Notes under the pieces: model-generated
Database searches by the model: none
Seen by the model: the letters and a program-made list of their open reading frames with translations, nothing else
Told to the model about the DNA's origin: nothing
Made by a program: the position numbers and the translations under genes
Shown: one piece after another, positions 13,754 to 44,111 of the stretch
Layout of the letters: each line of letters opens with the position of its first letter
How positions within the stretch are numbered: the stretch's first letter is position 1
From: Strigamia acuminata
Taxonomy: Eukaryota
Direction of reading: 5' to 3'
Assembly (NCBI GenBank): GCA_949358305.1
Contig: OX442314.1
Coordinates: forward strand, 8,370,001-8,434,000
DNA length: 64,000 nucleotides

Positions 13754-13775
13754 TAAGAGAGACATTGTAGTCTAG

Positions 13776-22655: not shown

Positions 22656-22793
22656 TATAACTGTCTGTATAGTAAGGTACCAAATAGGCTGCCTTACTTG
22701 GATGTTTTACGTTGAAATATTTCAACTTTATGCTTGCGCGTTGAAGCTGATGCAACAACGCATGCATGTGAACTAGCCTACATAAGTTCTTAC

Positions 22794-24240: not shown

Positions 24241-25199
24241 TGTGGTGATCTCAAAATATTCACCAACTTAGAAGATTAAATTAATTATCTTCTAATTAAT
24301 TTGACTGTGGCACACGCCAAGTCAGATCATGTGACCGAGGGGAGAAATCCTCTCTAGGCACATATCACCCCAGGTTGTCCGGGGTGAAAACGGTTATTAG
24401 CCGTTATGGTGCAATATGGTGTAATAACCACTAGTTGCACCCATTTGAGCTAAGTGCGCAGGTTTTCTGCGCAATATTGAAGCGTGCTGGGCTCGCGTCT
24501 TGGCTCAAATCGGCACTCTGAAAAATACAACAACAACCTCAACATCACTGCGATATCTGCTCCGACAATACGTATTGATAGAGGACCGTTGTAACTCAGT
24601 TTCACCTGCTATCTTTGTGCCACCCAAAGCACAAAGCCAGCAATTCTGCTTGAATTAGCCGTAGCTAATTCCAGCAAACGAGAAGAAGAAGTTTCCCGAC
24701 GATCGTGAACCATCGCCGTCGCTGCCGCGCGAACGACAGCCACCGCCATCGTACGAGAGCCGGACGCCTACAGCCGTCAACCACCGCCGCCGAGCCGTCG
24801 CACGAGCCGTAGAAGGAGCCCACGAGAACCATCGTCTTCGACCATCGTTCGTGAGTTCAGCAAACGAAGACAATTCGCCTTCGCCTAACAACTGTGTGTT
24901 GTTTAAGCGCCATTTTAGCGCTTTGTAGCTTGCAACAGTCGTTGCAAGCCCTTCCATTGTTCCCGCTCATTTCATTTCGCGACTTGTCGCCATTGTGATA
25001 TTTTTAACTAGTCATTGTAATTTAAACGAATAAATACATATTTGTGATTTTTATTAATAAAACTGTCTTTTTATTTCTTTTCCTTAAACTTAACCCCTAG
25101 ATAATTTAAGGCCGCCGATTGTAAGTCTTTTATAGCATTCACCTGCGGTTTCTGCTTAATTTATTAGAAATTAAGTGGATAAAAACCCGGATCGCAGCA
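24241..25199 (+). repeat. 5' LTR (959 bp)
   Basis: TGTGGTGATC...GATCGCAGCA. No difference from the 3' LTR seen by eye. AATAAA at ~25029. Confidence 0.97.
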
Positions 25200-25201
25200 C
25201 G

Positions 25202-25219
25202 TGGGGGCCCGTCCGGGAT
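25202..25219 (+). promoter_or_regulatory. Primer-binding site, tRNA-Pro type
   Basis: TGGGGGCCCGTCCGGGAT versus the canonical tRNA-Pro PBS TGGGGGCTCGTCCGGGAT (17/18), 2 nt after the LTR. Confidence 0.9.
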
Positions 25220-25310
25220 AGTCATTGTATAACTTTGTTAGTTAAAATTTACCCGCCATTTTTATCTTGCTTATCTTTCTTCTCTATCCTTTCTTTATCC
25301 TCATTGAAAA

Positions 25311-28300
25311 ATGGCGACTCCTTCAGAGAAGAGACCGAGAGGAAGGCCGGCGAAGAGACGAGTGGCGATCGATCTACCAGTCGTGGATCAAGAAGTGACT
25401 GAGTCACAAGAATTGTTTGAAGCCATGGATCAAACAGCTAACTGTAACTCGGCACAGTTAATCGTGAATGAATTCACGCAAGCGTTGGAGCGACAACAGC
25501 CATCCCCGCCCAGCGGCCAGTTGGACTTAAACAATCCAACTGGAAGTGGCCGTTCCAAGTCGCAAAACGATGATTTGAATTTACGAATTCAATCATCAAG
25601 TGCAGAGCACTCGCTGAATTCATCACCGGTTCAAGGTGCAGCACAACAAGATTCTGAGAACTCCAATATGGAAGTTTCTCATTCTCCCGTGCGTGTTACC
25701 ATGATGGACGCACTCCGTGAGCAAGCTAGGCTCGAGGGAGTAATAGTCACTAGCGAAATGACTGTGGAACAAATCCACAAAGCTATGGTTCGCAAACAAA
25801 GTCAAAAAGACGTTGAAATCGTCAGAACAAGCTTGCAAGCAGAGTTCGAGCGAATGCGTGCAGAAATGCATCAGCAAAATGCCGAACTAAAACAACAACG
25901 TGCGAATGACCATGTTAAGTTGTTACAATTAGAGCAGGAAAAAGCTTCCTGGCTAATTACTGACGAAGAGCAACAACAAAGGCTCGAGCAACTAAATCAA
26001 GCCCAAAAAGATTTAGAAATTGCTAATGAAAATTTGAGATTGGCCAACGCAAATTTGCGAGAAGCCAACACGAATTTAATGACTGCCGAACTAACCGCCC
26101 CAGTTCGAGCGAGGGAAGAAATTCCCTCCACTTCTCGAAATTACGAGAATCATGCTGCAGAGCAAGCAGCAAGAGCTAAGAGATTAGCACAACGAGAAAA
26201 CGAAGTATTTCTCGCTCGACAGCAGTCCGTAATTGATGCTGGTCAAGCCGCCAAAAGTCAAAGTACTGCAGAGCAGTTATTACGTGCCGACTTAGCTGCG
26301 CAAGCTCGTGAAAACGAAATTCTTCGCGCAGATCTGTTGACGGTACAAGAGAACTTTGCAGTAGTCGTACAAAAAGTACAAGACGTTTGCGGCGAAGATA
26401 ATTTTGCAAAGCCAGCCCCAGTTTTGCAAAAAGGTGCTTCCAAATCACCTGAGTTGATTGATTTAACATCAGCTAAACCAAAAGTCAGTCGACAATCAAG
26501 TTGGACTGACAGCGATGACTCACGCAGTAGTCGTGGAAGCCGTAATAGTCATCACAGTCGCAAAAAGAGAAAGCGACAACCAGACCCGACCGAATATCAT
26601 TCCCCAAAAGTTCCGCAAAATTCGGATAGATTCTTTAGCAATAGTGACCAATTAATTGGATTGCTGGCGAAAAAGAATAAAGAACGTGAGAAACCACACG
26701 ATCGTGGACGGTCACACGATAATCCGCGAGAAGGCTCACCAAAACGAGATTGTCACAACGACATCCGTGATGGGCCGAGATACCGTGGAAATCCGCCAGG
26801 TGGTGACCCACCAGGTGGAGACAGTTCAGATGGACATGGAGGTGGCCACTCACGTGACCACAATTCGAATGGCAATCGAAATGGAAGGGGACCACCAAAT
26901 GGAGACCGTCGTCCGCCAGATGGCGACGATCCTCCGGACCCTGATCCGCCGCCAAATCCGAATCATGAATCTGCGTCAGATACAGATTCCTCACGTCCCA
27001 GTGTGAGAGGGCGATCTCGTCACAGAACACGTAGTAGAACTCAAAGACCCGATTTTTACACGAAAGATGAGATTGACCAGTTGTTGAGGCAAAATGCTCA
27101 ACAACAGCGAAAAAGCAGAAGGGATAAAATTATTTTGCAAAAAATAAGTGAATTTACTTCTGATAAATGGACTCATCAAACAACAGATGAAAAGTTCATT
27201 AGATGGGATCGAGTTATCCCACATGCCTATAATGGAAATTGGCAAGCAGGGTCAAACCTCTTGCTGGAAATATTCGAACTAGGCAAAGTTCACAGTTTTA
27301 GCTGTGAAGGTGCATTGGCCCATCTAGTACCAAGAATACTAGTTGGCGGTGTCAAGGAGTGGTTTCGCAGGAAAGACTTCACGAAGTGGGATGACTTCGT
27401 TAAACAATTTATGTTTAAATTTGGTGAATCGAGCGAAGACATCAAGACGCTTTGGAGATGTCTTAAGCAACGAAAAGGCGAAAGCTTACATTCGTACATG
27501 CTAAGAGCAGAGAATCTGCTTGGCAGAATGCCACATGCTGTTACTGATGCAACAGCAGATGATCAGTTTAGAGCTGGCCTCACAGAATATAGTAAAAATA
27601 TTCTGATGATGTCGGACGCTCCCGACCCGGGGAAATTCTCCGAGTTAAACGAATTCATGGAAGTCAATCAATTGCGCATTGACGAAAAGTACAAAGCTTA
27701 CCTTACAGAAAGCGAAAGGTCAGCGTACTTAAAGCGAGAGAAAAGACTCGCTGAGCAAAACAATGAAACCTTTAATGGTTTGAAATTGTTGCAGCCACCT
27801 AGTTACGAAGACTTTCTAGACGAAGTGGATGAGAAGAGTTCGAAAAAAGAATCTTCCAAAAAGGACGTCAAAAATCCTCATTCAGTTCCTAAGTTACATG
27901 CAAATATAACAGGAGCTGAAACTCCGTCGTCTGAAGCTGAAGAAGCTGAAGAGGAGGAGGAAGCAGGAGATGAGACGTTGGCTTTATTAGCCAAAGCAGC
28001 GGCGCTGTTAGCAAAAAATAACCCCGTTGCAGGCAAATGGAAGCCAAAAATGAAACCAAAAAATGTTTCATTTGACGCATCAAAGGTGAATACCGAAAGG
28101 AATTCAAAATCACCCGCGGTGTCGCCAGAGCGCCGGTCTGACGCTCGTTCTCGTTCTGCCTCACCAGCAGCAACGAAAAAGAAATCGCCTGCCACTGATC
28201 CATGCAATTTATGCAAAAAATTAGGGCATTGGCAAAAAGACTGCCCATCCTCTAAAAAGGACAAACCAGTGTCAACAGCTGAGTTTGAAAAAGCAGTCAA

Positions 28301-28334
28301 GATCATAACTGACATGTTTCGAAAAAACTTGTAG
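25311..28334 (+). CDS. gag: Gag polyprotein (1007 aa)
   Basis: Long ORF after the PBS. Coiled coil, retrotransposon capsid region (WF...WDDFVKQF..KF; KQRKGESLHSY) and CCHC knuckle CNLCKKLGHWQKDC. N-terminal KRPRGRP AT-hook-like motif. Confidence 0.95.
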   Translation: MATPSEKRPRGRPAKRRVAIDLPVVDQEVTESQELFEAMDQTANCNSAQLIVNEFTQALERQQPSPPSGQLDLNNPTGSGRSKSQNDDLNLRIQSSSAEHSLNSSPVQGAAQQDSENSNMEVSHSPVRVTMMDALREQARLEGVIVTSEMTVEQIHKAMVRKQSQKDVEIVRTSLQAEFERMRAEMHQQNAELKQQRANDHVKLLQLEQEKASWLITDEEQQQRLEQLNQAQKDLEIANENLRLANANLREANTNLMTAELTAPVRAREEIPSTSRNYENHAAEQAARAKRLAQRENEVFLARQQSVIDAGQAAKSQSTAEQLLRADLAAQARENEILRADLLTVQENFAVVVQKVQDVCGEDNFAKPAPVLQKGASKSPELIDLTSAKPKVSRQSSWTDSDDSRSSRGSRNSHHSRKKRKRQPDPTEYHSPKVPQNSDRFFSNSDQLIGLLAKKNKEREKPHDRGRSHDNPREGSPKRDCHNDIRDGPRYRGNPPGGDPPGGDSSDGHGGGHSRDHNSNGNRNGRGPPNGDRRPPDGDDPPDPDPPPNPNHESASDTDSSRPSVRGRSRHRTRSRTQRPDFYTKDEIDQLLRQNAQQQRKSRRDKIILQKISEFTSDKWTHQTTDEKFIRWDRVIPHAYNGNWQAGSNLLLEIFELGKVHSFSCEGALAHLVPRILVGGVKEWFRRKDFTKWDDFVKQFMFKFGESSEDIKTLWRCLKQRKGESLHSYMLRAENLLGRMPHAVTDATADDQFRAGLTEYSKNILMMSDAPDPGKFSELNEFMEVNQLRIDEKYKAYLTESERSAYLKREKRLAEQNNETFNGLKLLQPPSYEDFLDEVDEKSSKKESSKKDVKNPHSVPKLHANITGAETPSSEAEEAEEEEEAGDETLALLAKAAALLAKNNPVAGKWKPKMKPKNVSFDASKVNTERNSKSPAVSPERRSDARSRSASPAATKKKSPATDPCNLCKKLGHWQKDCPSSKKDKPVSTAEFEKAVKIITDMFRKNL

Positions 28335-28368
28335 ACGCAGATCCATCAGGTCTAGTGGACGCTGCGTC
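28322..28368 (+). promoter_or_regulatory. -1 ribosomal frameshift signal (A AAA AAC plus stem-loop)
   Basis: Heptamer 28322-28328 is in the gag frame just before TTG TAG. The pol frame is -1 and open across it. Hairpin GACGCAG(28334-40)/CTGCGTC(28362-68) with inner TCCA/TGGA. Confidence 0.85.
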
Positions 28369-31300
28369 ACCTCCGAAATCGGAATCAGAGAATGAAAATC
28401 TGAAGATAATGGAAGATGTTGGAGAAGTTATTGATGAATTAATTCGTCAAACAGAACTAAAAGAAAAAGGATCTCTTGATGTAAAAAAGGAGATTGTCGG
28501 CGAAACTCCGACTGAAGAAGACACTTCCAATATTAAAGATAAAGTTGAAGTTAAAGACGATAGACCAAGCTCAGTTCCAGAGACACCTGGAATTGAGGAG
28601 TGCATTAAGTTATTTGCAGCTACAACTCTTGATACCAATGAGTTATTAGATGAATTGCCTTTGGAGCCTCCAATTACAATTCCTCATAAATTGCGCAAGT
28701 TTGAGTGCAAAGTGGCTGGAATACCAAACAGCCAAGACCTTCCGACGTTAAAGTTAGAAACGTTAAAAGGTGTAATAACCGGAATGTTGGACTCAGGAGC
28801 AAATAAAAGCTTCCTAGCCACTTCAGTTATTAATCAATTAGGTCTAGAAAAATATCTACGACCTATCGGACCTGGTGTCAGAGTCACGACGGCAAGTGAA
28901 GAAGTCACTCCAGATGGAACCATTCATCTTTCATTTCGATGGACACATGGCACGTTACGTCATCCGTTCATCGTAATACCAAATAAGTATCCAATGGTAC
29001 TATTGGGTTGCGATTTTATGAATAAATTAAAAATCCAACCTAATCCACAGACGATGTCTTGGAATTTCACGCAACCTGTGGATGCAGATTTACCCTACAT
29101 TCCACAAGCGTTGCTGGATCGTTATTTGGAGAAAATAGAGGAACCCGATTCCTCATTTGTGACCTTTGCAAAAGCTTACGCTGCAAGTGTAACTCAAAGC
29201 AAAATTGATGAAGAGAATTTCATCCAAAAGTTAGTCAAAGAAGCTAACTTAAATTTGGAGCAATCCAAATTATTAGAAAAGATGTTATCCAAACATAAAA
29301 GGATTATTTCTAAAGATCCAGGTAAAACACACCTGGTTAAGCACAAAATTGAGCTTGACACGGAGAAACCCATCCGTGTCCCCTTTAAGAGCATAAACCC
29401 TCAAAAAAGGGAAATAATCAGACAACTTTGTCAAGACATGATTGACAAAGGCGTAGTCGTCAAAGCTGAAGGCGATTACGGAATGAGGCCAGTCCTAGTC
29501 ATGCGACCAGGAAACGACCCACGCTTGTGCATTGATTTTCGCCCCATCAATACACATACTAAGTACAACCCACCTCAAATGCCAACAATTGAGGAAATTC
29601 TGCGAGAAATCGGAGAATTCGAGTGGGTCAGTACTATAGATCTGACCAAGGGATATTGGCAGATAGAATTGCGCCCTGAAGACAGAGAAAAAACTGCCTT
29701 CTGGAGCCCAATGGGAAGACTAATGTTTTTAGTCATGCCTTTCGGATTAGTAAACGCACCAACTACCTTCCAAGAATTGATGGAAAAAGTTTTGGGTGAC
29801 GTTTACAGAAAATTTGCATGGGCATATTTGGATGACATAATTGTTGTATCTAAATCGTTCGAAGAACACATTAAACATTTAGATATAGTGTTTAAAAAAT
29901 TGGCAGAAGCTAATTTACATGCGCATCCTGGCAAGACGCATCTCTGTAGAAAGGAATTAATTTTTCTAGGCTACAAAGTAGGAGTAGAAGGACTTGCAGT
30001 AGACCCTAAAAAAGTCGCTGCAATTACGCAATTTCCGGCTCCTACCAATCTTAAGGAATTACAAAGATTTCTAGGCATGGTGAATTTCTTTCACCGCCTA
30101 ATCAAGAATTTGGCCACAGTGGCAGAACCACTAAGGCCACTCTTGAAGAAAGATGCGGAGTTCGATTGGGAACTGCATCATCAAGCAGCATTCGACGCAA
30201 TAAAAGACCTGCTTACGAATGCTGAAACAATGAAGATGCCTGACTTGTACATGCCATTTATTGTTCATACTGACGCCAGTAAACAAGGGTTGGGTGCAGC
30301 CCTTACACAAAAGAAAATTGTGGATGGCCAAGAAGTCGAAATGCCATGCGTGTATGCAAGCAGAAGCTTGCAACCCGCTGAAAAGAATTATACTGTGACA
30401 GAATTAGAATGTCTCGCAGTAGTATGGGGATTACGCAAATTTCGCCCATACTTAGAGTACACTACATTCACTGTACAAACGGATCACCAAGCACTTAAGT
30501 GGTTGATGTCGTTATCTGACCCGTCGGGCAGATTAGCTCGTTGGCAAATGGAGCTAATGGCGTATTCGTTCGAAATACAATACGTCAAAGGTCCGCTGAA
30601 TGTAATAGCAGACGCATTGTCACGTGCACCTGTCAGCGCACCTGACGAACCAGAAGACGATGGCGATAATGATGATTTATTATCATATTGTCCATCTCCT
30701 TGCCGAAGTTGGCAAATGGGAAAATTGAACGAATTACCCAAGTCAATAATAGTTAATGACGACGATCAAGCATTAATTAATTTTTGTATTAACATGCATG
30801 ATCCGTCAGGAACCCCTGACGTCGAATTAAGAGCTATGATGGCTAAAAAATTCGAGCTGCCAACAACAAATGTTTTAATTAAAGCATTTGCAGCTAAAAT
30901 TGCGAAGCAATTAGAATGTGATCCTCCAACGAGAGATGACATTATTGCAGCGCAAAAAGCAGACGAATTTTGCCAACATATTCGCAATTACTTGCTAAAC
31001 AAGCAATATCCAAGTTACATAGTAACTCATCTTCAAAGAAGAAACTTTGAAAGACACGCGAGTACTTATCTCATTGAAGAAGATATGCTACTCCATTATC
31101 ATCCTACCTCCACCGATGAATTGGGAGAGGATGGTAGGGCACTTAAAGTTGTTGTGCCAAGAAAATTGATTTATAAAATCATTTGGTTGATGCACGGACA
31201 TCCACTGTCCGGCCACCCAGGCATTGCGAGGACAATGTACCGAACTCGAAGAGTTTATACCTGGAAAGGTATGAAACGTGATATTACACGTTTTATTCAA

Positions 31301-32581
31301 CATTGTCAAGGATGTCAGGCATGTAAGCCGAGATCAAAGACCGAAATTGAAGGCGCTCAAATTGGACCATTTGGACCATTTGACTGCCTCAGTGTGGATT
31401 TGTCTGGTCCCAAACCAAGAACCAGAAAAAACAATACCCACATTTGCGTCATCGTAGATGTCGCTACACATTGGCCCGAATTATTTCCAATGTGTAATCC
31501 AACGGCAATAAAAGTTGCCAACACAATTTATCACTTATCAATGACTTTCGGATTTCCGAGACAAATCATAAGTGATAATGGACCACAATTTCGATCACAG
31601 GTCTATAAAGAATTTTGCAAAAAATTCGACATGTCGCGAACACCGACATCGATTTATCATCCACAAAGCAATCCTGTGGAGAGAACCAATCGAGATATTA
31701 AATATTTAGTTTCGATTTATTTAGATATTCATGACCAATGGGATGAGTATCTACGCGAATTTGCATTCAGTTTGAGAACAACTGTAACAAGAGGCAGAGA
31801 TTATTCTCCTGCTTTCTTAAATTTTTTCCGAGAATTAAGAATTCCTTGGGATCCAAGAATTCCGGAAGGAATTTTAGTCATTGATCCAAAAAATCCGCAT
31901 TTATATGTTCAGAAATTAGAAACAATAATTGCAGAGACGTATCAGCATATGATGTCTCACGTCTTAGATTTGAGACGCCGTGTCGAAGCTGAAAAATCAG
32001 ATAAGAAATTCGACAACTTCAGACAAAATGATTTAGTCTGGCGAGAGTCTCATATTCTCTCAAATGCCGCTAAAGGAATAGCAGCAGGCATTTCACCGAA
32101 AAGGAATGGGCCTTATGTAATTATCAAAAGGTTACAAGGAGGCGCCTTTCAACTTCGACGGCTGAGTGATAATAAAATTTATCCAGCTGTTCACGGCACT
32201 GAATTAATGCCGTACTTTCCCGTTTTCAACCAAGAAATTTGGCTGGAAGGGGAGGAAGTGGGTCAAAAAACAAAGAATATTGTTAATACCTTGGATGATG
32301 CTAAATTATCCAAAATTCCTGTCGAAAACACGGAATCGAGTAAAAAATCGAAACTCAAAAATAACGAAGTCGATGAAATAAACCAGCGACTTGAAAATGT
32401 TTCTCTTGATGAAAATCTAGAAAAGGAAATGTTTTTAGAAAAAGAGAAAATTTCAAACAATGAAGTATATAACTCATCTGACATTGGAGACGATGCTGAT
32501 GACAATCTAAACAAGTTGGATTGTACTTCGCGAAAGTCAAAGTACAACTTGAGATCTCGCGTTCCGCGAGCCAAGACATAG
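28322..32581 (+). CDS. pol: Pol polyprotein (protease, RT, RNase H, integrase), expressed as Gag-Pol
   Basis: LDSGA protease, YLDD RT, TDAS..GLGA/ELECLAVVW RNase H, HHCC plus D,D,E integrase (VDL, SDNG, VER) and GPY motif. Confidence 0.97.
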   Translation, partial: KKLVDADPSGLVDAASPPKSESENENLKIMEDVGEVIDELIRQTELKEKGSLDVKKEIVGETPTEEDTSNIKDKVEVKDDRPSSVPETPGIEECIKLFAATTLDTNELLDELPLEPPITIPHKLRKFECKVAGIPNSQDLPTLKLETLKGVITGMLDSGANKSFLATSVINQLGLEKYLRPIGPGVRVTTASEEVTPDGTIHLSFRWTHGTLRHPFIVIPNKYPMVLLGCDFMNKLKIQPNPQTMSWNFTQPVDADLPYIPQALLDRYLEKIEEPDSSFVTFAKAYAASVTQSKIDEENFIQKLVKEANLNLEQSKLLEKMLSKHKRIISKDPGKTHLVKHKIELDTEKPIRVPFKSINPQKREIIRQLCQDMIDKGVVVKAEGDYGMRPVLVMRPGNDPRLCIDFRPINTHTKYNPPQMPTIEEILREIGEFEWVSTIDLTKGYWQIELRPEDREKTAFWSPMGRLMFLVMPFGLVNAPTTFQELMEKVLGDVYRKFAWAYLDDIIVVSKSFEEHIKHLDIVFKKLAEANLHAHPGKTHLCRKELIFLGYKVGVEGLAVDPKKVAAITQFPAPTNLKELQRFLGMVNFFHRLIKNLATVAEPLRPLLKKDAEFDWELHHQAAFDAIKDLLTNAETMKMPDLYMPFIVHTDASKQGLGAALTQKKIVDGQEVEMPCVYASRSLQPAEKNYTVTELECLAVVWGLRKFRPYLEYTTFTVQTDHQALKWLMSLSDPSGRLARWQMELMAYSFEIQYVKGPLNVIADALSRAPVSAPDEPEDDGDNDDLLSYCPSPCRSWQMGKLNELPKSIIVNDDDQALINFCINMHDPSGTPDVELRAMMAKKFELPTTNVLIKAFAAKIAKQLECDPPTRDDIIAAQKADEFCQHIRNYLLNKQYPSYIVTHLQRRNFERHASTYLIEEDMLLHYHPTSTDELGEDGRALKVVVPRKLIYKIIWLMHGHPLSGHPGIARTMYRTRRVYTWKGMKRDITRFIQHCQGCQACKPRSKTEIEGAQIGPFGPFDCLSVDLSGPKPRTRKNNTHICVIVDVATHWPELFPMCNPTAIKVANTIYHLSMTFGFPRQIISDNGPQFRSQVYKEFCKKFDMSRTPTSIYHPQSNPVERTNRDIKYLVSIYLDIHDQWDEYLREFAFSLRTTVTRGRDYSPAFLNFFRELRIPWDPRIPEGILVIDPKNPHLYVQKLETIIAETYQHMMSHVLDLRRRVEAEKSDKKFDNFRQNDLVWRESHILSNAAKGIAAGISPKRNGPYVIIKRLQGGAFQLRRLSDNKIYPAVHGTELMPYFPVFNQEIWLEGEEVGQKTKNIVNTLDDAKLSKIPVENTESSKKSKLKNNEVDEINQRLENVSLDENLEKEMFLEKEKISNNEVYNSSDIGDDADDNLNKLDCTSRKSKYNLRSRVPRAKT

Positions 32582-32629
32582 TGTTGTCTTTCACCTTTTG
32601 GGTTTACCCAAAAGATCCGAGAAAGCAAT

Positions 32630-32750
32630 CTCGTGACGTCATTCGTAGTACCCGCTCGAATGACAACGTTAATCATACGTTATAATTAGTGACGTCACAA
32701 AGCGTCTCTAATCCAAGTTCGTGTTTGCAATCAACGAACTTAGTCACTTT
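32630..32750 (+). promoter_or_regulatory. Candidate internal promoter for ORF3
   Basis: Two TGACGTCA (CRE) palindromes (~32634, ~32690), TATAAT (~32682) and Inr-like TTAGTC (~32740), just upstream of ATG 32771. Confidence 0.4.
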
Positions 32751-32770
32751 TTCAAAAGTTTCGAGAGTGT

Positions 32771-35566
32771 ATGCATCGCATCGCCTACGTTACGACCCGA
32801 ATAGTTCGACAACCTGATCGTAAGTAATTTTTCTGTATGAAAAATTTGATAAAACATAAGATTTATGTATTATTTCTCTTTCAAGACGAAAGAATTTCCG
32901 AAATTACCGGAAAACGAAAGAGAATGGACGAGGAAGCGATCCAACTCCAGGCGGACGGAGAAATGCCCATGGAAGGGGCAAATGAAGACGTTCAATTGAC
33001 GCTTCAACAACGGGTAAATTATTAGAATAAATTTTTACCAAGTGTTTAAGTCAGAAAAATTGAGTAATTTCACTTTTCCTGACTTCAAACACAAGCCGCT
33101 AAAAAATAAAAATGGCGGCTATAAAAGTCACGTGCTTCAAGCATGTGCGAAGGGAGTTGCCATGACAACCAACATCCCTTAGTGACTCACAGCCACAAGC
33201 GCTAAGCTTAAAAAATATTTCAAATAAGAAATTATTTGTTTATTTTTAAATAAACTAATTTATTTATTTTTCTTCGAATATAGATCGAGAGGGATCGAGA
33301 AACACCATTCGCGCTTCCCGATCACGTGCCGACTCAGCACCCGCTGATTTTTCGAGCGGCATTGCCCGAAAAAATCAGAAGACTGAAGACGGCAAACAAT
33401 ACCTGGTGGAAGTTGCGCCACGACTTCAGCAGATCAGCGCTGCAAGGATTTGGTGCAAAAGGAAGATTCATCGAGCGCCTTCACGTGGACGGTGTCGACG
33501 AAATCGAGTGGACGCTCGACGAGAGCCCCCCAGGACCGCTTGCAGCAGAGTTGCTGCACAACCAGTGGCCAGTGACGCCACGAGAGCGTCACGAGCGCAG
33601 AAGAGCGCTAAAGAGTACCGGAATTAATTACGGTGCTCTAACCCAATTGAGGAAGAACCTCAAGACGACACAACGCGAAGTCGTTAAACGGTATCGCAAA
33701 TCCGTTCGTGACGGGAACCCACAACTTCCCGTCACACAAACCGAGCTCCACCAGTTGGCGCTCGCCGGGTGTTTTAACGATTTTCCGGGATTTTTCCCGT
33801 CCAAAGCACTCCGAGCTGCCGCGGTGCAGCTTCGCGTCGACGAAAATCGACAACTGGCTCGAGAACACGAGGCAGAGGAGCAAGCGCGTTGCGCTCTCCC
33901 TTTTTATCAAGAAGATGAAATTCCGGCCCCAGCGGCCATCAATCCTCCGCCGCAAGACGAGGATTTGAGGGTGGGGCAACTCCCTCCGCCGGTTCCAGTC
34001 CGACCGATGTTCCGCGAATCAAGCCGCGATCGAGAGGAACGTCAGAGGCGATCACGCCCATATTCGACTGACGCGCAGCCATCACGCCCGCAGTCGCGAC
34101 GAGGACGGACACCAGAGTCGTTTGGCTCGTCGTCTTCGCTGAGTTTCGAATCGGACTCCACAATTAAGTCCGCCCGAAGTAGCCGAACCGCCTCCACGTT
34201 CAAAGTGGACAACCCGGCTACTCCATACGCCATGAGACGTGTCGTCGGTGATATTTCTCCCGACTGTAGTGTGCCTGTACCTGGACACGCTAGCCGCTTG
34301 CCCGAACAAGGTTATGTTTCCCGCTTGCCGGCTGGAGTTAGCAACCTGCAACTCCGGCCATTTTTCAGTGAGTCGTTCGGCCCACAATGGACCTGCTACG
34401 AGCAGCAACCCATTAGAGCGCAGCAGGAAGTGCTCCAGAAGCTGGACGCATACCAAAGCGCCCAGATCGCCGAGTCACAGAAGGACTGGCAGAGACTAGC
34501 TGAAAGGCTAGAAGTCTCCGACATCAATACCATTGATGATCCCCGCCTGATGGATTTTCAGCGTCAGCTAATTCCGGGGATGACTAGGGTGTTGTACCCT
34601 GGTGTTCTTCCTTCGCCAGGACAGGCGTTAGCGGCCATTACGTACCTTTGGACCGCGCCGATGGGCCTGTCGGAGAAGAAAGTCGAGCTGTGGTACCACC
34701 TCAGGCTCGACCCGCCTACGATCTTAGCCGAGCTAATAAAGCAAGTCGTAGCAAACGGTGAGACCGAAGAAGAGGCCGCCGTTCGGTTGCGAACCGAGTG
34801 GTCCTTTGCGAAGGCCACGGCGCGAATGACCGGAAGACCACCGCTTCCAGTTACAAGCGCCACAGCAGCTGCGTCACTGGCTGTTTTCCAGTCGGCTCAA
34901 GAGGGCGCTGGATGTTCATTTTGGCCAGAGAACGCCGGAAGTTCTCAAACTCCAGCCGGAGTTCAACGGGTAGTCGAAACCCGTCAGCTCCCCGGTGTGG
35001 GTCGAGCACCGGGACGAGGCGTCACACCCTCGTCAACCTCCGCACCCGCGTTGGTTTTCTTGGGCCCGCAGTGCCATTTTGACGATGCCACGACGGAAGA
35101 CTCACGTCCGCCGCCGCCGCCGCCAGCCAAGCCGGAGACGAAGGTCAAGCCGCTGAAAAAAGAGTCGGCTTTCAAGACCCTGATGCGCCTGTATCCGCAC
35201 TTCTATTTGACGCCGGATACGCGAACACTGCTTAGCAACAACCACAAGTTGTCGAGGCAGGTGTTTATGTGGCTCGAGGACCACATCCGGGTGTTAAGCC
35301 CACCATCAGTGCTCCACGATCGACTCCTGAGAGCACGATTGGCGCCAGAGGATCCCATAGAGTTTGCGGCGCTAGGATTTTTCAACCGAGCGAACTCGGC
35401 GAGAATCATCCAGGTTTGGCTTCATGTCAACCCTGGAATGGTCTCCGGACCAAACGCAGGTCGCGACCTGTGTACGGTTAACGAGCGGTCCAACCCGAGG
35501 GACGACACCACGGATATGATGCGCCCGTTGACGCCTGAGCGAACTCAGACCATGGACGAATCATAA
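32771..35566 (+). CDS. Spliced non-env accessory gene (ORF3) of the Gypsy element (exons 32771-32819, 32886-33013, 33284-35566; ~819 aa), function unknown
   Basis: Donors C|GTAAGT (32820) and CGG|GTAAAT (33014). Acceptors TTTCTCTTTCAAG (32885) and TTTTCTTCGAATATAG (33283). AT-rich introns; both junctions keep frame: MHRIAYVTTRIVRQPDH-ERISEITGKRKRMDEE...LQQR-IERDRETPF...PTQHPL... No signal peptide or TM segment evident. Confidence 0.8.
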
Positions 35567-35605
35567 ATTGGTTCGTTCATTTTCTCTCCATGTAAGATTC
35601 GTCTT

Positions 35606-35618
35606 AAATGGGGGGATG
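35606..35618 (+). other. Polypurine tract
   Basis: AAATGGGGGGATG immediately before the 3' LTR. Confidence 0.8.
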
Positions 35619-36577
35619 TGTGGTGATCTCAAAATATTCACCAACTTAGAAGATTAAATTAATTATCTTCTAATTAATTTGACTGTGGCACACGCCAAGT
35701 CAGATCATGTGACCGAGGGGAGAAATCCTCTCTAGGCACATATCACCCCAGGTTGTCCGGGGTGAAAACGGTTATTAGCCGTTATGGTGCAATATGGTGT
35801 AATAACCACTAGTTGCACCCATTTGAGCTAAGTGCGCAGGTTTTCTGCGCAATATTGAAGCGTGCTGGGCTCGCGTCTTGGCTCAAATCGGCACTCTGAA
35901 AAATACAACAACAACCTCAACATCACTGCGATATCTGCTCCGACAATACGTATTGATAGAGGACCGTTGTAACTCAGTTTCACCTGCTATCTTTGTGCCA
36001 CCCAAAGCACAAAGCCAGCAATTCTGCTTGAATTAGCCGTAGCTAATTCCAGCAAACGAGAAGAAGAAGTTTCCCGACGATCGTGAACCATCGCCGTCGC
36101 TGCCGCGCGAACGACAGCCACCGCCATCGTACGAGAGCCGGACGCCTACAGCCGTCAACCACCGCCGCCGAGCCGTCGCACGAGCCGTAGAAGGAGCCCA
36201 CGAGAACCATCGTCTTCGACCATCGTTCGTGAGTTCAGCAAACGAAGACAATTCGCCTTCGCCTAACAACTGTGTGTTGTTTAAGCGCCATTTTAGCGCT
36301 TTGTAGCTTGCAACAGTCGTTGCAAGCCCTTCCATTGTTCCCGCTCATTTCATTTCGCGACTTGTCGCCATTGTGATATTTTTAACTAGTCATTGTAATT
36401 TAAACGAATAAATACATATTTGTGATTTTTATTAATAAAACTGTCTTTTTATTTCTTTTCCTTAAACTTAACCCCTAGATAATTTAAGGCCGCCGATTGT
36501 AAGTCTTTTATAGCATTCACCTGCGGTTTCTGCTTAATTTATTAGAAATTAAGTGGATAAAAACCCGGATCGCAGCA
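35619..36577 (+). repeat. 3' LTR (959 bp)
   Basis: Direct repeat of 24241-25199 (offset 11378). Confidence 0.97.
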
Positions 36578-36974
36578 ATCTTAATTCAAAAAAACAAGCA
36601 TTGTTAACTTAGTTTCAGGATGCAATTGATGTCAAGCGCTGAACAGAGCCAAATAGAAGTGATTTTTGTGGAAATAATTGCCGATGTCTAAATGTCGTAC
36701 TGTAGTCCAATTCCGGTGGAAAACTAATGCCTTGTTCACACTTAAACCACTTTTGTAGAAGTTACGGCTTATTTCGATAAGTATACTTCAGACCTGTTAT
36801 ACTTTTTATACAAATTAGTGACGTTTTTAACAAGAACTGACGTCAAAAGTGACTTTCTCAACTTCAAGTTGTACAAAGCCATTACAAATGTGAATAACGG
36901 AGTTTCTACAAGCTGTCTGAAAGAAAAGTGGTTAAAGTGTCAACAAGGCATAAGACACACATTGTAGTCTATAG

Positions 36975-39900
36975 TTAGTCAACCCTATAGAAAACACAAG
37001 AAAAAATGTGTTAAAAGCAACGCAGATGTGAACAAGGTGTGTTGTTAATGGTCAAGTGCACCGAGTGGGTTTTATTTTTTTTTGACAGAGCCTAATAAAA
37101 AATTGTTATTAAACAATGATAAAGGCCCAAATTTTATTTTTTTTTAACATGAAATACATTTTATCATTAGGTTCTATCAGAAAAAAATAAATCTCACTCG
37201 GTGTGCTTGAATTTTAAGCCTAGTTCACATAGGTGTAGGACCACATTTGCGATCGCCAAATTTGCGATCGTGAAAATTGGTGTCAAAATTGCGACGTTCT
37301 GAATTTGCGACGAATTAAAAAAAATAAAAATAAAAAAATAAAATAAAATAAGAAATGATCCCAAATTTGCGATGGACCACATTTGCGACGTCCCAAATTT
37401 GCGACGTCCTAAATTTGCGACGTCTCAAATTTGCGACGAGTTTTAGCTTCGTTTCTGCCGTATCATTGTTTCTGCTGTATCATTGTTTTTGCCGTACCAT
37501 TGTCTCTGCCGTATCATTGTTGCATTCGCCTTTACCGCTGTTGCACCGTGATCGTTTCCTATCGTTTTTCGCGTCGACCTCGTAATTGTTTCCTAGGTAA
37601 ATATTCGGAATTTGGTATTCGGTAAATGGCAGTGTTTACGATTAAGTCATTATGACGAAAACAAGACACAAACATAAACAACTTTCACTCGTTTTGAAAG
37701 AATTTTCATAACTTTTTACACATTTTGAAAAATTTTTCACCACTTTTTGCTCGTTTTGAATGATTTTCACCACTTTTTGCTCGTTTTGAGTGATTTTCAC
37801 TACTTTTAAATCGTTTTGAATGATTTTCACAACTTTTTGCTCGTTTTGAATGATTTTCACAACTTTTAAATCGTTTTGAATGATTTTCACAACTTTTAAA
37901 TCGTTTTGAATGATTTTTCACAACTTTTTACATTGTATCGGAAATTCTAAGTTGTTTGTGTTTGCTTATACCCATCATCATGACGTCATTCGTAAACTTT
38001 TCCATTTAATAAATTATTCAGTGCACCACTAATTTGTATCTATTCTTGAAAGATGGCTTCCTCCTTAACACGAATTCCTTCCCACGCTAAAATCGATTCT
38101 CGACAATGGTACGACGGTCAGAAATTTATATTTCGGGAAGATAAGCTGTTTGTTGAGGATGACAACTTAATGTTAATGCGATGCTGTGTGCAAACTTGCC
38201 GTAGTCGCGGACGTCTCGATCTGACCACTCATGAGTTTAATATGACTACTGCGCACTCTCATGGCACAACTCCACTCGTTGTGAACACCAAATTATTTGC
38301 GTACGAACTCGTCAGTAACTGCAAAAAACTTAACCCATCAGCGTCAAAGAAACCCGAATATGATAAGCTGTGCGTAAAGTACCCGGACGTTGCGTCGGCG
38401 AAGCCCTATACGCGTTTCAAGTCTATGCTGAGTAGACTATGCAGAAGAGATATCCCAAAGCTTGATAGCATGAAGGAATTTTACAAATTCTTTGAAATGC
38501 AGAAGCACGAAGTTGTCCTCGAGGAGCGGATTTCGTACATCTATGACACAACATTGATTGCAGCAGACGGCTCAATCAGTGTTTTTTTTATTAACCGCGA
38601 ACTGTGTGCACAAATACAGCCAAAGTGTAAGGAGTATCATACTGACGCAACGTTTAAGGTGGTGCCGCAATTTGCCAATGCTGCCAACGGTTCTTTCACC
38701 CAGTTTCTCACTGTTCAGGGCATGGTCGGAAAGAAACTAATTCCATTTTGCTTCTGTCTCATGACTAGGAAGTCTGCTTGTGCGTACGAGCGGTTATTCG
38801 GACACTTGGCTGTAATCATGGATTCTATTATAGCTGGTAGCACATTCATGACAGATTTTGAGCCTGCATTGTATAAATCAATTGAATCAGCATTCCCGTT
38901 GTGTCAAGTTGTGCACTGCAGTTTTCACTTTTGTGAATCACTTCGCCGCAAGGCAATGAAGCTCGGCCTGCAACCGTTCTACAGCACCAACGAATATGCG
39001 TGGGCGGCGATTCACTTAGTCATGGCTATAGTGTACCTACCGGCTGCGAGGGCGGAGATAGCACTCGAAGTTGTGGAGACATACTGGAACTCAGCGGCGC
39101 GGGTGGGCAGATTAGCTGATCTTATGTCGGAATTTTTTGCCTACTTTCGACAGTACTGGTTGGTGGAAGTCACAGCCACACGTTTCAGCGTTTTTGGTTT
39201 GGCACATCGGACGAACAACAGTCTCGAGTCGTGGCATTCATCTCTTCCTGCAACGCTTGGAAAACATACACTCCCTGTCCACTTTGTAGTCGCCTTATCG
39301 CAAGTCGACCACACAGCCACGGTTAATTTTGCACAAGAGATGCGTGATCTGGAAACGCAACAGCCGCAATGCAAGTCGTACTTGCTGAATGATACGTGTA
39401 TAAAGAATCTAATGGCCAAGTTTGAAGACCGTACGCTAAACGAACTCGAGTTCCTGAAGGCCATGGCCTACCGTGTTTCCATGATGAGGGAAGGTTTTTC
39501 TTTGGATTGCAACGGCGCGATCCCTAATGGTTTGCTGGCCGCACCACCCGTTGAGCCGCGAATCCCACAGGTGAACGTCACTGGTCGGTATGTTCGCCCA
39601 GTCCTGCCCGCAGACCCACCACAGTTCAATCTAGATGACGCCCTCGCAGCAGCAACCGCACAAACGGCAGTTGCACGGACGACAACTCGCAACCCAAATC
39701 CACCGGCACGTCGCCGTGGCCGCCCGCGTATTCACCCGCTGCCAACCACTGCCAACCGGCCCCCTGTGCAACTCCGACGCTCTCCACGCAACCGACTGTC
39801 CGAGCCACAACCAGAAGCTGCTGAACGACGTAGCAGATCACCGAACGACGATATTTTAGAGCCGCCTGTCCAACTCCGACGCTCTCCACGCAACCGACTG

Positions 39901-41530
39901 CCCGAGCCACAACCAGAAGTTGCTGAACGACGTAGCAGATCACCGATCAACGATATTTTAGAGCCCCCTGTCCAACTCCGACACACTACACGAAACCTAG
40001 CTGCACGTATTCCACAGGCAATACCTGTACCACAGGTAATAACTGTTGGAGAAGATTCGGATGATGAATTGGGTATTGCACCGGATGTGTGGCACAGAAT
40101 TGGAGAACAGCAACGCTTACAGCGCATTCAGCGCTTACCCGTAGAAGTCCACACATTGGCAACAGAGTTGGTTGAGTTCTTGACTCAAGCGGTCGAAAAC
40201 TTAATTGCCACCAGAGAACCAAATGACTTCACTTGCCAGCTGTGTAGCACAAACCAGTGCAACATCTCATACAGGTGCGGTCACATGGTTTGTGCAGCCT
40301 GTGCAAAAAAGGCAGTGTTAGTAAATGTGGAGTTGAAATGTCACGTGTGTCGAATAACGGTCACGAAGCGGGAAGATCTGCATAGACTGTTTGCTAACTA
40401 AACACTTCTTTTCAAATAAGTTCCATTTCAATAAACAATTTTTTATAAATATAATTAATACATTTTTATTTCCTTATTACATTCTGTTCAAAAACGTACC
40501 GAAAATCACTGAAAATGATCAGAAATGAACAAAACCACCCAAAAATGACCACAAAACCATCCAAAAATGACCGAAAACCACCAAATAATAACCAAAACCT
40601 TGCCCACAACTTTAATCTTAATCATTAAAAAATTTCACACTTGATTCGCTGTTATTTTCTGTTATGTTCGATACATTTACGTCCATTTTAGTTATTTTTG
40701 GTTGGTTTTTGGTAACATTTTCGTGATTTTTGTTCAATTCCGATCATTTTCAGTCGTTTTTTGTTCAATTCCGATCATTTTCAGTCGTTTTTTGTTCAAT
40801 TCCAATCATTTTCAGTCGTTTTTTGTTCAATTCCAATCATTTTCAGTCTAATTTGGGAGGTCGCATTGTTGGGAGCTTACTCAATTATCGTGCGCTTAAA
40901 AACTTTTATTCGTCGCAAATTTGAGAGGTCGCATTGTTGGGAGAGATTTAATAATAATGTGCGTCGCAAATTTGGGACGTCGCAAATTTGGTCCGCGCAA
41001 ATTTGGTCCGCGCAAATTTAGGATCGCAATTTTAGCGATCGCAAATTTGACGATCGCAAATTTGAACCCCGCCCGTTCACATACATGCATTAACGCATGC
41101 ATTTTGCGCACCAAAACTGCTTAGTTCACATGCACGCTTTACTACCGTGCGTTGGCCGAAGCGCCTTGTGACTTCGTGCGATATAACGCACGACGGATGA
41201 AATTGAAATATTTCAACTTTACGCTTGCGCGTTTAAGCTGATGCAACAACGCACACATGTGAACTAGCCTTTAGTTACATAAGTTCTCACTTGGAATATG
41301 TACAAATACAATCATTCTGGTCATTACACGCTCCCGCAAAATATCCAGTTGAAAAACGACAACTTTCTTTACAACCAAAGTCGCCATCTAGCTTACAAGA
41401 TAAACTTGTTGCTGTAAAAAAGATACAGATCAATACTCATGTAGTAAAAACTACAATTTTTAAACCAAAAACAAAACTTACCAACAACATGGATTAAACA
41501 GAACAAGCTTAAAATGAATAGAAATTTCAT
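36975..41530 (-). CDS. Defensin-like secreted peptide G (exons 41530-41482, 41411-41291, 36984-36975; 59 aa); MULE in intron 2, Gypsy in 3' UTR
   Basis: MKFLFILSLFCLIHVVATSLSCKLDGDFGCKESCRFSTGYFAGACNDQNDCICTYSKVD*. GTAAG and GTGAG donors. Confidence 0.88.
37232..41074 (+). mobile_element. Autonomous-looking Mutator-like element (MULE), 3843 bp
   Basis: 9-bp TSD GTTCACATA (37223-37231, 41075-41083). Imperfect G-starting TIRs with AAATTTGCGA(T)CG repeats. Subterminal ~30-bp minisatellites (37720-37930, 40725-40850). Single intact ORF. Confidence 0.92.
38053..40401 (+). CDS. MULE DDE transposase with FLYWCH-like N-terminus, AT-hook and C-terminal RING finger (782 aa)
   Basis: TDATFK, MTDFE, CSFH and RTNNSLESWHS MULE motifs. 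RRRGRPR. Repeated PPVQLRRSPRNRL. C3HC4 CQLC..CGHMVCAAC..CHVCR. Confidence 0.92.
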   Translation: MASSLTRIPSHAKIDSRQWYDGQKFIFREDKLFVEDDNLMLMRCCVQTCRSRGRLDLTTHEFNMTTAHSHGTTPLVVNTKLFAYELVSNCKKLNPSASKKPEYDKLCVKYPDVASAKPYTRFKSMLSRLCRRDIPKLDSMKEFYKFFEMQKHEVVLEERISYIYDTTLIAADGSISVFFINRELCAQIQPKCKEYHTDATFKVVPQFANAANGSFTQFLTVQGMVGKKLIPFCFCLMTRKSACAYERLFGHLAVIMDSIIAGSTFMTDFEPALYKSIESAFPLCQVVHCSFHFCESLRRKAMKLGLQPFYSTNEYAWAAIHLVMAIVYLPAARAEIALEVVETYWNSAARVGRLADLMSEFFAYFRQYWLVEVTATRFSVFGLAHRTNNSLESWHSSLPATLGKHTLPVHFVVALSQVDHTATVNFAQEMRDLETQQPQCKSYLLNDTCIKNLMAKFEDRTLNELEFLKAMAYRVSMMREGFSLDCNGAIPNGLLAAPPVEPRIPQVNVTGRYVRPVLPADPPQFNLDDALAAATAQTAVARTTTRNPNPPARRRGRPRIHPLPTTANRPPVQLRRSPRNRLSEPQPEAAERRSRSPNDDILEPPVQLRRSPRNRLPEPQPEVAERRSRSPINDILEPPVQLRHTTRNLAARIPQAIPVPQVITVGEDSDDELGIAPDVWHRIGEQQRLQRIQRLPVEVHTLATELVEFLTQAVENLIATREPNDFTCQLCSTNQCNISYRCGHMVCAACAKKAVLVNVELKCHVCRITVTKREDLHRLFAN

Positions 41531-41874
41531 TTTTGATGGATGCTCCTGCGGTAGAAATAGAGAAACTAACGAATAGCAGATGAAGGAACTGGTCTTTACT
41601 AGTATGTGTTGCTGATGTGGCAGCGATACTGTATGTATTCATATGTTTACCAAGCGTCATACGACGCGTGCTTGGTGTACAGGCAAAATGACGGATGGTT
41701 ATCACGTGACTGTACAGAGCATTGTAGATCAGCGATTGCTTGGCAACACGTTCAAATATATATTAATGCGACAAATCTTAAAAAATAACATGTTATAATT
41801 TTATTTTTTTGTTAATTTTCTAATAAAAATATAGTGTCATGTAAAAAATCTTCATAAATAACATGTAATAATTA

Positions 41875-42128
41875 TTTTGTTCTATATTTATTTAAGTACC
41901 GTAACAAAGATATAAAAATATATACATAAATAAATAGCTATTTATTTATGTATATATTTTTATATCTTTGTTACGGTACTTAAATAAATATAGAACAAAA
42001 CTTGTGACAGAATAAAACTTGTGAAGAATAACCTGTGAAGAATAACCTGTGAAGAATAACTTGTGTAGAATAAAACTTGTGACAGTTTGGAAGAGCCTAG
42101 GCTCTTCCAAACTGTCACAAGTTTTATT
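41875..42128. repeat. Two perfect spacer-less palindromes (41875-42000, 126 bp; 42069-42128, 60 bp) separated by short tandem repeats
   Basis: Centres TAG|CTA (41937/8) and GCCT|AGGC (42098/9). GTGAAGAATAACCT repeats lie between them. Confidence 0.9.
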
Positions 42129-43102
42129 TTATTTTATTTTATAGCTTTTGTTGTCGTCTCCAACACACCTGCTGCTTTTTCCCTATTATTTTTAAACTCT
42201 CGAATGGCAAACAATTATTACGATTACTTTCAAGGACTAAATGACAATGCTATGCACCGACATGTTGAAAAAATTAAACTTATCACTACCGAAAAATGCT
42301 TCTAACCAAAGGTTCAGACATTTTTTACCTCTGAAATTCCGCCTGAACTTCTGGTCCGCTGTTACACAAATCCACCAAATACACTGCCTGTTTTGACTGG
42401 TTCCCCACAGCCCAAATTGACTGATACCCAATCCACATTAACCAATGATTCACCATCAGTTCTGACAAATACACTATTACAAAGAAATGAAATACGGAGT
42501 TTCTGCTCTTTATTTTCCTAAATTATCATAAATGAATAAAGTTCTTTCCAGTTATTTGTATATGAACTTGGTTTATTCATGGTGAAAACAAGAAAACACA
42601 GCAAAGTGATCAAAACAATGATATAACACTATCACATCATATCCCAATTACCCTCAACCAAAGACCTATTTTAAAATAACCCATACCCTTACAAGACAAC
42701 ATCTCACGTATCATCTTGATGCAAAAAAACAAGCATTATTAACTTAGTTTCAGGATGCAATTGATGTCAAGTGCTGAACAGAGCCAAATAGAAGTGATTT
42801 TTGTGGAAATAATTGCCGATGTCTCAATGTCGTACTATAGTCCAATTCCGGTGGAAATGAATGCCTTGTTCACACTTAAACCACTTTTGTAGAAGTTATG
42901 GCTTATGTCGATAAGTATACTTCAGAGCTGTCATACGTTTTGTACAAATTAGCGACGTTTTTAACAAGAAGTGACGTCAAAAGTGACTTTTTCAACTTAT
43001 ACAAAGCCATTACAAATGTGAATAACAGCGTTTCTAAAAGCTGTCTAGAAGAAAAGTGGTTAAAGTGTAAACAAGGCATAAGAGACACATCGTAGCTAAT
43101 AG

Positions 43103-44111
43103 TTAGTCGTCCCTATAGGAAACACAAGAAAAAATGAGTTAAAAGCAACGCAGATGTGAACAAAGTGCGTTGTTAAAGGTCAAGTGCACTGAGTGGGTTT
43201 TATTTTTTTTCTGATAGAGCCTAATAAAAAAATATTTTTCATGTTAAAAAAAATAAAATTTGGGCCTTTATCAATTGAAAAACTTGACTTTTTCAATGTG
43301 ATGCATGATGGTTGTTGGCTGGATGACCTACGTCATCAGTTCGGCGGTGGTTGGTAGTGGTGGTGTTGCGCATGCGCAGTGAACAGTTTTCACTCCCGCA
43401 ATCAAGGTCAACCAATATGAATCCGACCTAAGCTCAGAACAAGTTCCAGGTCAACTGAACTAGAGAACTGACAACGTCATACTCCCATGATTCTTTGCCT
43501 TGTCAACACCCGATATTGCGATTGTTATTAAACAATGATAAAAACCCAAATTTTATTTTTTTTTAACATGAAAAATATTTTTTCATTAGGCTCTATCAGA
43601 AAAAAAATAAAACTCACTCAGTGCACTTGACTTTTAAGCCTAGTTCACATACAAGCATTAACGCATGCGTTTTGTGCACCAAAGCTGCTTAGTTCACATG
43701 CACGCTTTACTACCGCACGTTGGCCGAAGCGCTTTGTGACTTCGTGCGATATAACGCACGACGGATGATGTTGAAATATTTCAACTTTAAGCCTGCGCGT
43801 TGAAGCTGATGCAACAAGGCATGCATGTGAACTGGCCTTTAGTTAAATAAGTTCTTACTTGGGAGATGAACAGATACAATCCTTCTTGTCATCACAATGT
43901 CCCTCAAAACGTCCAGTTGATGCTACGCAAGTTGCTTTACAACCAATGTCGCGAATATTAATATTAGCCAGACAAGCCAAACTTATTGCTGTAAAAAAGA
44001 TACAGATCAATACTTATGAGTGTAAAAACTACAATTTTTAAACCTAAAACAAAACTTACCAACAACATGATGGATTAAACAGAATAAGCTTAAAATGATT
44101 AGAAATTTCAT
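43103..44111 (-). CDS. Defensin-like secreted peptide H (exons 44111-44060, 43988-43859, 43112-43103; 63 aa)
   Basis: MKFLIILSLFCLIHHVVAISLACLANINIRDIGCKATCVASTGRFEGHCDDKKDCICSSPKDD*. First loop is C-x10-C. Confidence 0.92.
43177..43633. mobile_element. Non-autonomous Kolobok-type element in intron 2 (shorter versions ~37049-37212 and 47694-47859; THAP-bearing partial at ~19145-19590)
   Basis: TTAA|AGGTCAAGTGCACTGAGTG ... CACTCAGTGCACTTGACTT|TTAA with ~95-bp TIRs. Confidence 0.78.

Follow-up and report, generated by a model that had tools for sequence, protein, structure and literature searches.

Can a retrotransposon that is copied through RNA carry introns in one of its own genes, and what would the product of such a gene do? 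The question is raised by a locus of Strigamia acuminata within a window of 64,000 nt (assembly GCA_949358305.1, contig OX442314.1, positions 8,370,001 to 8,434,000); the window is the whole stretch of DNA analysed, and positions below count from its first letter. The element at 24241-36577 is an intact, recently inserted Ty3/Gypsy LTR retrotransposon, with the following features.

24241..36577, + strand: whole element, from the paired LTRs and a 4-bp target duplication
24241..25199, + strand: 5′ LTR, 959 bp, TG...CA, 100% identity with the 3′ LTR
25201..25218, + strand: primer-binding site, tRNA-Pro-like, in the sequence adjoining the 5′ LTR
25311..28334, + strand: gag, 1007 aa, with a CCHC knuckle at the C-terminus (ORF, Pfam)
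28313..32581, + strand: pol, with Pfam domains in the order PR-RT-RNase H-IN; it overlaps the end of gag in another frame
35603..35618, + strand: polypurine tract, in the sequence preceding the 3′ LTR
35619..36577, + strand: 3′ LTR, 959 bp, identical to the 5′ LTR

The assignment to Ty3/Gypsy is based on the domain order PR-RT-RNase H-IN, the TG...CA LTRs, the target duplication, the primer-binding site, the polypurine tract and the presence of gag upstream. The duplicated sequence ATCT flanks the element on both sides, and the insertion site is inside a host repeat. The primer-binding site at 25201..25218 we take to be of the tRNA-Pro type. Among the 120 matches listed for the RT-RH region the best identity is 46%, and in an RT-RH tree of 118 rows the element sits on a terminal branch of 0.8; named pol matches are from a pseudoscorpion, insects, a tick and rotifers. 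The zf-CCHC match of gag in Pfam has an E value of 0.0009, just below the curated cut-off. No capsid family in Pfam was matched by gag, and no clear relative of it was detected in the sequence sets searched, including 80 gypsy loci. Gag is unusually long, its N-terminal half being extended, Gln/Ala-rich and helical-looking, and its Arg/Ser-rich tracts contain 21 RS/SR pairs.

The surrounding DNA is rich in repeats. Dense nests of dispersed and inverted, MITE-like repeats are found at 10800-24240 and 36578-49000, and it is one such repeat into which the element has inserted. An intact MULE transposase ORF of 782 aa (38053-40401) has a repeat region rich in Pro and Arg and, at the C-terminus, a weak RING-like motif. 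It is flanked by inverted tandem arrays, near 37250-37440 on one side and near 40870-41070 on the other; other tandem arrays are at 37684-37953, 56595-57016 and 63732-63996. At 404-630 there is a 75-codon host exon that ends at a GTAAGT donor. It shows no Pfam match, and presumably resembles the N-terminus of an invertebrate globin.

Downstream of pol and ahead of the 3′ LTR, at the env position, is a long open reading frame, here termed ORF3. Its predicted layout is as follows.

32771..32819, + strand: predicted exon 1, 49 nt, beginning with ATG 32771 in a weak context (sequence)
32820..32885, + strand: predicted intron 1, 66 nt, GTAAGT...TTCAAG, GT-AG type, 20% GC
32886..33013, + strand: predicted exon 2, 128 nt, encoding KRKR followed by in-frame ATG 32924 in a strong context; the single open frame of the three is the in-phase one
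33014..33283, + strand: predicted intron 2, 270 nt, GTAAAT...ATATAG, GT-AG type, 30% GC
33120 (TATAAAA), 33109 (YY1-like), 33156-33169 (X-box-like palindrome), 33183 (AP-1-like) and 33255 (branch-like CTAAT), + strand: motifs within intron 2, from a motif scan
33284..35566, + strand: exon 3, an ORF of 760 codons, first Met at codon 242, encoding three predicted helical regions with Ser/Arg/Pro-rich linkers

When joined, the predicted exons form 2460 nt, i.e., 819 aa plus a stop, with no internal stops. The 760-codon frame is not a chance product, since 2000 shuffles of exon 3 yielded no ORF longer than 365 codons; the other five frames of this region contain 19-31 stops each. The exon 3 frame has its first Met at codon 242 and extends upstream as far as a stop, the TAG of the acceptor itself. 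Thus codons 1-241 need upstream exons, and the chance that exons 1 and 2 are both stop-free and in phase is about 2%. The predicted acceptors, the first of which ends in AAG, come second and third among 805 AG on a T-rich score devised ad hoc. Only three GTAA[AG]T sites occur in 11.4 kb of sense strand, and the predicted donors are two of them; they are termed moderate here because they rank 15 and 7 of 524 GT with a generic matrix. The sense strand of the element is short of strong donors compared with the antisense strand: the best sense score is 4.4, whereas seven antisense sites reach at least 4.5.

From reading frames and splice-site ranks, ORF3 is likely to be spliced as predicted. We consider it very unlikely that the two intervals are not introns, with translation starting at Met 242 of exon 3 or the frame going unused. 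The moderate donors would fit such a reading, as would the predicted nature of the junctions; however, 241 open codons that include the best-predicted helical region lie 5′ of Met 242, and the in-phase open exon 2, the top-ranked acceptors and the branch-like motif also speak against it. An earlier note on this DNA had described a 760-codon exon preceded by two short exons, with introns of 66 and 270 bp and a product of about 819 aa; the layout found here matches and all coordinates check. The note had also called ORF3 more GC-rich than pol, which is the case (57% vs 40%). Codon use follows a similar division, with a GC3 of 0.60 in ORF3 vs 0.38 and 0.34 in gag and pol, and RSCU correlations of -0.04 and -0.10 between ORF3 and gag or pol compared with 0.76 between gag and pol. 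Codon use so unlike that of gag and pol fits an mRNA that is handled separately.

Other copies were read from DNA contigs of three public runs aligned to the element; these runs contain the stretch, and none of the three is recorded as RNA. They represent a diverse multi-copy family, which is young and of high copy number. In run X1 a contig of 486 nt spans 32593-33078 with a single difference and has a depth of 5964, vs about 100-125 for low-depth pieces. By this ratio, which is a rough one as depth is not copy number, dozens of copies keep intron 1 and donor 2. If the intervals are introns, the RNA that was copied must then be unspliced, and the proposal in the earlier note that packaged RNA stays unspliced follows on the same condition. 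No processed copies were seen among the 15 joints listed of 45, none of which falls on the predicted junctions. A dip in depth at 32620-33060 was considered as a loss of the region, and this was rejected since one long high-depth contig covers it. Two contigs of run X3 begin to match exactly where intron 1 begins, with other letters replacing exon 1, and a low-depth joint at 32753-33440 has an unaligned middle section. Thus the 5′ exons differ in some copies.

Variants among the copies also bear on selection. Of 572 variants, 40 rows were listed, 28 of them coding. Among those listed, 5/8 are synonymous in ORF3, 5/8 in gag and 9/12 in pol, vs 21-28% expected; the ORF3 excess, with its eight listed variants, has a P of 0.03-0.05. 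ORF3 has no indels among the 12 listed of 73, and a 273-nt piece with 33 differences shows no gap. A comparison of substitutions among copies, which the earlier note had suggested, hence shows ORF3 leaning towards synonymous change within the listed set.

The translated ORF3 sequence is rich in Arg, Pro, Ala, Leu, Glu and Ser and has a pI of 9.0. KRKR is at residues 26-29, and long low-complexity linkers have alternating acidic and basic blocks. If translation began at ATG 32924 (residue 30), the product would have 790 aa and lack KRKR. Only two loose matches to an export signal are present. The seven Cys residues are scattered (222, 262, 387, 430, 603, 656 and 789), and there is one N-glycosylation sequon. 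The hydropathy scan of the 819 aa showed no membrane segment, with a maximum over 19 residues of 1.0. By the same measure, six post-pol ORFs from other gypsy loci, used as controls, have maxima of 1.95-2.62 in five cases and 1.3 in the sixth; the Baculo_F-positive one among them reaches 2.54. Single-sequence models (pLDDT 41 and 43) display three helical regions and linkers, with low confidence.

These properties allowed several candidates to be set aside. An env or errantivirus-type fusogen was rejected, as ORF3 has neither a hydrophobic anchor nor a Cys-rich glycosylated ectodomain and does not match Pfam at E up to 1. A fusogen of the sORF2/FAST type, a short protein with one transmembrane segment, was rejected on the length of 819 aa and the lack of a hydrophobic segment. 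A captured enzyme of the GDSL or DEDDy type was rejected because the Pfam scan that was blank for ORF3 detected GDSL and RNase_T at other gypsy loci. Taken with the selection data, ORF3 is very probably a real, selected, non-env third gene. The earlier note had inferred a non-env protein from the absence of a signal peptide and a transmembrane anchor, and the maximum hydropathy, the seven Cys, the single sequon and the lack of a Pfam family bear this out.

Searches for relatives of ORF3 were blank. No Pfam family was matched at E up to 1, and no match was found in a set of 5.8 billion sequences (near lengths), among PDB sequences, in viral contigs, in metagenome contigs or in the 80 gypsy loci fetched with the RT; nor did HMMER detect a homologue among 1.84 billion cluster representatives. 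The whole of exon 3 found no match in the ESM Atlas, and residues 1-215 gave only F-box leads that score below 0.8 and are at chance level. An Rfam scan returned one match, also at chance level (E 0.62). With models of pLDDT 41-43, Foldseek gave no match at E 0.001 or better, and in a wide fold search the best Z was 6.2, on a helical hairpin. Thus a protein family that the earlier note did not recognise, and for which it had suggested a fold search, has no match in Pfam, in the sequence sets or by fold. It should be noted that the orphan status is in part a matter of sampling, since the RT of the element is only 46% identical to the nearest match listed. The blank searches are therefore weak evidence of novelty.

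One predicted feature, of RNA structure, is common to gag, pol and ORF3. In folding predictions, the RNA of 24241-36577 forms a close succession of short, small-looped stems along its length. In 150-nt windows compared with dinucleotide shuffles, the mean z is -3.2 in gag, -3.0 in pol and -2.1 in ORF3; the same test gave -0.1 in the MULE ORF, -0.5 to -1.1 in three host stretches and -0.4 to +0.9 in 10 other gypsy RT regions. Synonymous-codon shuffles show a folding excess of 31% in gag, 48% in pol and 21% in ORF3 (z -7 to -12; ORF3 z -10), vs 0% in the neighbouring MULE ORF and -14 to +8% in six other post-pol ORFs. By codon shuffles the RT-RH region of the element has 32.5%, vs -10 to +17% in 22 other gypsy RT-RH regions. 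The folding excess is 46% on the sense strand vs 33% on the antisense strand. The strongest folding is at the start of U3 (24241-24400, z -8.6; 35641-35790, z -11.2). At 29 variant sites the mean pairing is 0.50 vs 0.61 overall, a weak trend (P 0.07). In the mostly open-access literature surveyed, no paper was found that describes ordered RNA structure along the whole length of an LTR retrotransposon.

That ORF3 has the predicted folding excess of the element argues for its long residence there, and this bears on whether ORF3 is a host gene recently captured with its introns and carried as cargo. A GC3 of 0.60 is host-like, as in the host exon at 404-630, the AT-rich introns look cellular and the codon use is unlike that of gag and pol. 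However, the neighbouring MULE ORF is without the folding excess that ORF3 displays, and 1.84 billion cluster representatives contain no homologue. In addition, gene capture through RNA normally drops introns, so that capture by this route would normally have lost them. We give recent capture very little credence.

The role of ORF3 may lie in the handling of the element's own RNA. Sites relevant to its expression are listed below.

24420..25310, + strand: ATG-free leader, 891 nt, 0 ATG vs 13 expected
24596, + strand: Inr-like TCAGTT, likely start region (motif; a putative start site)
25029 and 25056, + strand: AATAAA (motif scan)
25121..25126, + strand: candidate major 5′ splice donor GTAAGT in U5, one of the three sense GTAA[AG]T sites, rank 8 of 524; putative use
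32634..32697, + strand: two TGACGTCA palindromes (at 32634 and 32690) upstream of exon 1, a possible internal promoter
32743..32758, + strand: candidate acceptor 13 nt 5′ of the ORF3 ATG, rank 13 of 805 AG; putative use

The transcript start is placed near the Inr-like motif at 24596 because the 891-nt stretch leading up to the gag start codon is free of ATG. If the U5 donor at 25121 were joined to the acceptor at 32758, the first ATG met would be that at 32771. We propose that a transcript started in the 5′ LTR would be spliced by default, from donor 25121 to acceptor 32758 and then at both small introns. The ORF3 protein would enter the nucleus through KRKR, and its Arg-rich helices would bind element RNA. 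As ORF3 builds up, full-length RNA would be exported, translated into Gag and Pol, and packaged, and by way of that packaged RNA the introns would survive reverse transcription. The dense predicted hairpins may help, either because they make cryptic splice sites less active or because they label the RNA for ORF3. Masking of cryptic sites is unsupported, since three of the four predicted splice sites also pair above the mean of 0.61 (0.65-0.69, with acceptor 2 at 0.38); the strong cryptic donors pair at 0.66 and 0.86, a third at 0.55, and the top cryptic acceptor at 0.82. By analogy, then, ORF3 would be a nuclear RNA-handling protein of the CERV/Rev type, made from a multiply spliced mRNA and letting unspliced genomic RNA leave the nucleus. 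We hold this reading tentatively, at somewhat short of even chances: the donors are moderate, ATG 32771 is in a weak context, the Cys are scattered, the protein has 819 aa and the export signals are loose. ORF3 has no recognised RNA-binding family in Pfam.

The analogy is with Cer1, a Gypsy/Ty3 element of C. elegans. As described in the available text, CERV is made from a five-exon spliced mRNA, the last part of which is a non-env ORF at the env position (PMC10309623). CERV is nuclear and is required for export of unspliced Cer1 RNA (PMC10309623, PMC3315495), and production of Cer1 capsids needs the skipping of consensus splice sites (PMC3315495). CERV has 517 aa, a KRKK motif, and three domains with linkers (PMC10309623). 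The earlier note had suggested a spliced accessory mRNA alongside an unspliced genome, as in complex retroviruses. A selected non-env gene fits that suggestion; the arrangement is however not new for gypsy elements, judging from what these sources give on Cer1 and CERV (PMC10309623, PMC3315495).

The differences from Cer1, as far as the published sections describe it, are considerable. Exons 1-3 of CERV are in the gag frame, so that its N-terminal exons are common to gag, whereas the predicted ORF3 exons are dedicated ones after pol, with their own ATG there and two small AT-rich introns; a further exon derived from gag is conceivable. Gag and pol are in different frames here and in one frame in Cer1. 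ORF3 has 819 aa vs the 517 of CERV. An essential Cys-rich loop is found in the middle domain of CERV, whereas the Cys of ORF3 form no cluster, and the G-protein-like domain of CERV has no evident counterpart in the all-helical, low-confidence ORF3 model. The function of CERV is demonstrated, and that of ORF3 is proposed from sequence. ORF3 may work like CERV, but nothing makes it a member of the CERV family. The likeness to HIV Rev, proposed for ORF3, is that what a spliced mRNA encodes licenses unspliced RNA for export, with Arg-rich helices, on what the accessible text reports (PMC10309623). The element is unlike the Rev system in not being a retrovirus and in that no single response element was located. 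The ORF3 protein is also much larger, the size of Rev being far below 819 aa.

A spliced transcript from the LTR is not the only means by which ORF3 could be expressed. Its mRNA may start in the stretch from pol to exon 1, or within intron 2, and be spliced like that of a cellular gene, with the genomic RNA staying unspliced via its own structure. This alternative concerns expression, and is compatible with any function of ORF3. The earlier note left an internal promoter out of its scheme. In the portions of the source available, the Tor elements of Oikopleura express a third gene by LTR splicing or from an internal promoter after pol, Tor3b/4b env being the precedent (PMC4402516). The Tor ORF3 is a membrane glycoprotein, and for the internal-promoter mRNAs evidence of splicing was lacking (PMC4402516). 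In the present element, the two TGACGTCA sites and an Inr-like motif at 32634-32697, the TATA, YY1-like, X-box-like and AP-1-like motifs of intron 2, and the element-wide predicted hairpins are consistent with an internal start. However, the TGACGTCA evidence is weak because 10 more copies occur outside the element, the promoter motifs were chosen after the fact, and a short upstream ATG at 32660 precedes ORF3. A start in intron 2 would meet a 6-codon frame only, and then no Met until codon 242. We rate an internal start as somewhat unlikely. The section 33100-33190 of intron 2 holds a cluster of TATA, YY1-like, E-box, exact X-box-like and AP-1-like sequences that may be an enhancer or promoter; the YY1-like, X-box-like and AP-1-like names are our own assignments. 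The one other X-box-like site of the window, with one mismatch, is at 49661; the expectation is 0.13 matches at one mismatch.

The function of ORF3 may also be other than RNA export. If spliced as predicted, it could be a nuclear transcription activator or an anti-silencing factor that acts on the LTR or on host silencing. KRKR, the basic helices, the long linkers with alternating acidic and basic blocks and the helical model would suit such a protein, as would the high copy number and the identical LTRs. On the other hand, Pfam shows no DNA-binding or chromatin family match in ORF3, and the export of intron-bearing RNA would be left unexplained; the idea is doubtful, at about the same weight as an internal start. 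Quite unlikely, in our judgement, is a cytoplasmic, particle-associated or movement factor that replaces env without a membrane anchor. The env position of ORF3 would agree with it, and sORF2, as outlined in the text available, is a precedent for env-less transmission. Yet that source gives sORF2 a transmembrane segment (PMC11952523), whereas ORF3 has none (maximum 1.0) and carries KRKR. The preferred reading thus continues to be a CERV/Rev-like protein.

Third ORFs that are not env are common in Gypsy-like elements, e.g., the bdelloid Juno and Vesta (PMC5408684). The ORF3s of these, in the part of that paper available, can be recognised as enzymes of the GDSL or DEDDy type or as proteins of membranes, whereas the ORF3 described here is without a Pfam family; the word “intron” is absent from the main text of that paper (PMC5408684). 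In our own set of other gypsy loci with at least 1.5 kb after the integrase, 21 of 32 have a further long ORF, some of which belong to neighbouring elements or genes. At two of the loci (L009:7329-10189 and L078:4835-7596) a GDSL lipase ORF 3′ of the integrase overlaps a Cys-rich hydrophobic ORF of about 715 aa with no Pfam family. Long post-integrase ORFs with C2H2 zinc fingers are found at L076:3692-5179 and L007:3419-4258, and an orphan ORF followed by an RNase_T exonuclease at L048:7268-10371; membership in the element is uncertain for these three. In the mostly open-access literature surveyed, no report was found of an animal gypsy element whose stand-alone, non-env ORF3 contains small introns.

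A stronger version of the proposal is that a gypsy lineage far from Cer1 independently built the switch of complex retroviruses, from a stand-alone three-exon gene, a new RNA-binding family and a genome of hairpins from end to end. By analogy with the systems above this is conceivable, and we think it unlikely. If it is true, the hairpin string would be the cis half of the system, with ORF3 as its reader, and would protect the genome against splicing and perhaps also against silencing by small RNAs. Independently of what ORF3 does, the hairpin excess offers a definite candidate mechanism, open to test, by which the RNA might escape default splicing. The export of intron-bearing genomic RNA has been solved for few retrotransposons, and in the literature surveyed CERV is the sole demonstrated case of an export factor that a gypsy element itself encodes. 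If confirmed, another export protein, unrelated to CERV and encoded by a gene with introns, would mean that this solution evolves repeatedly.
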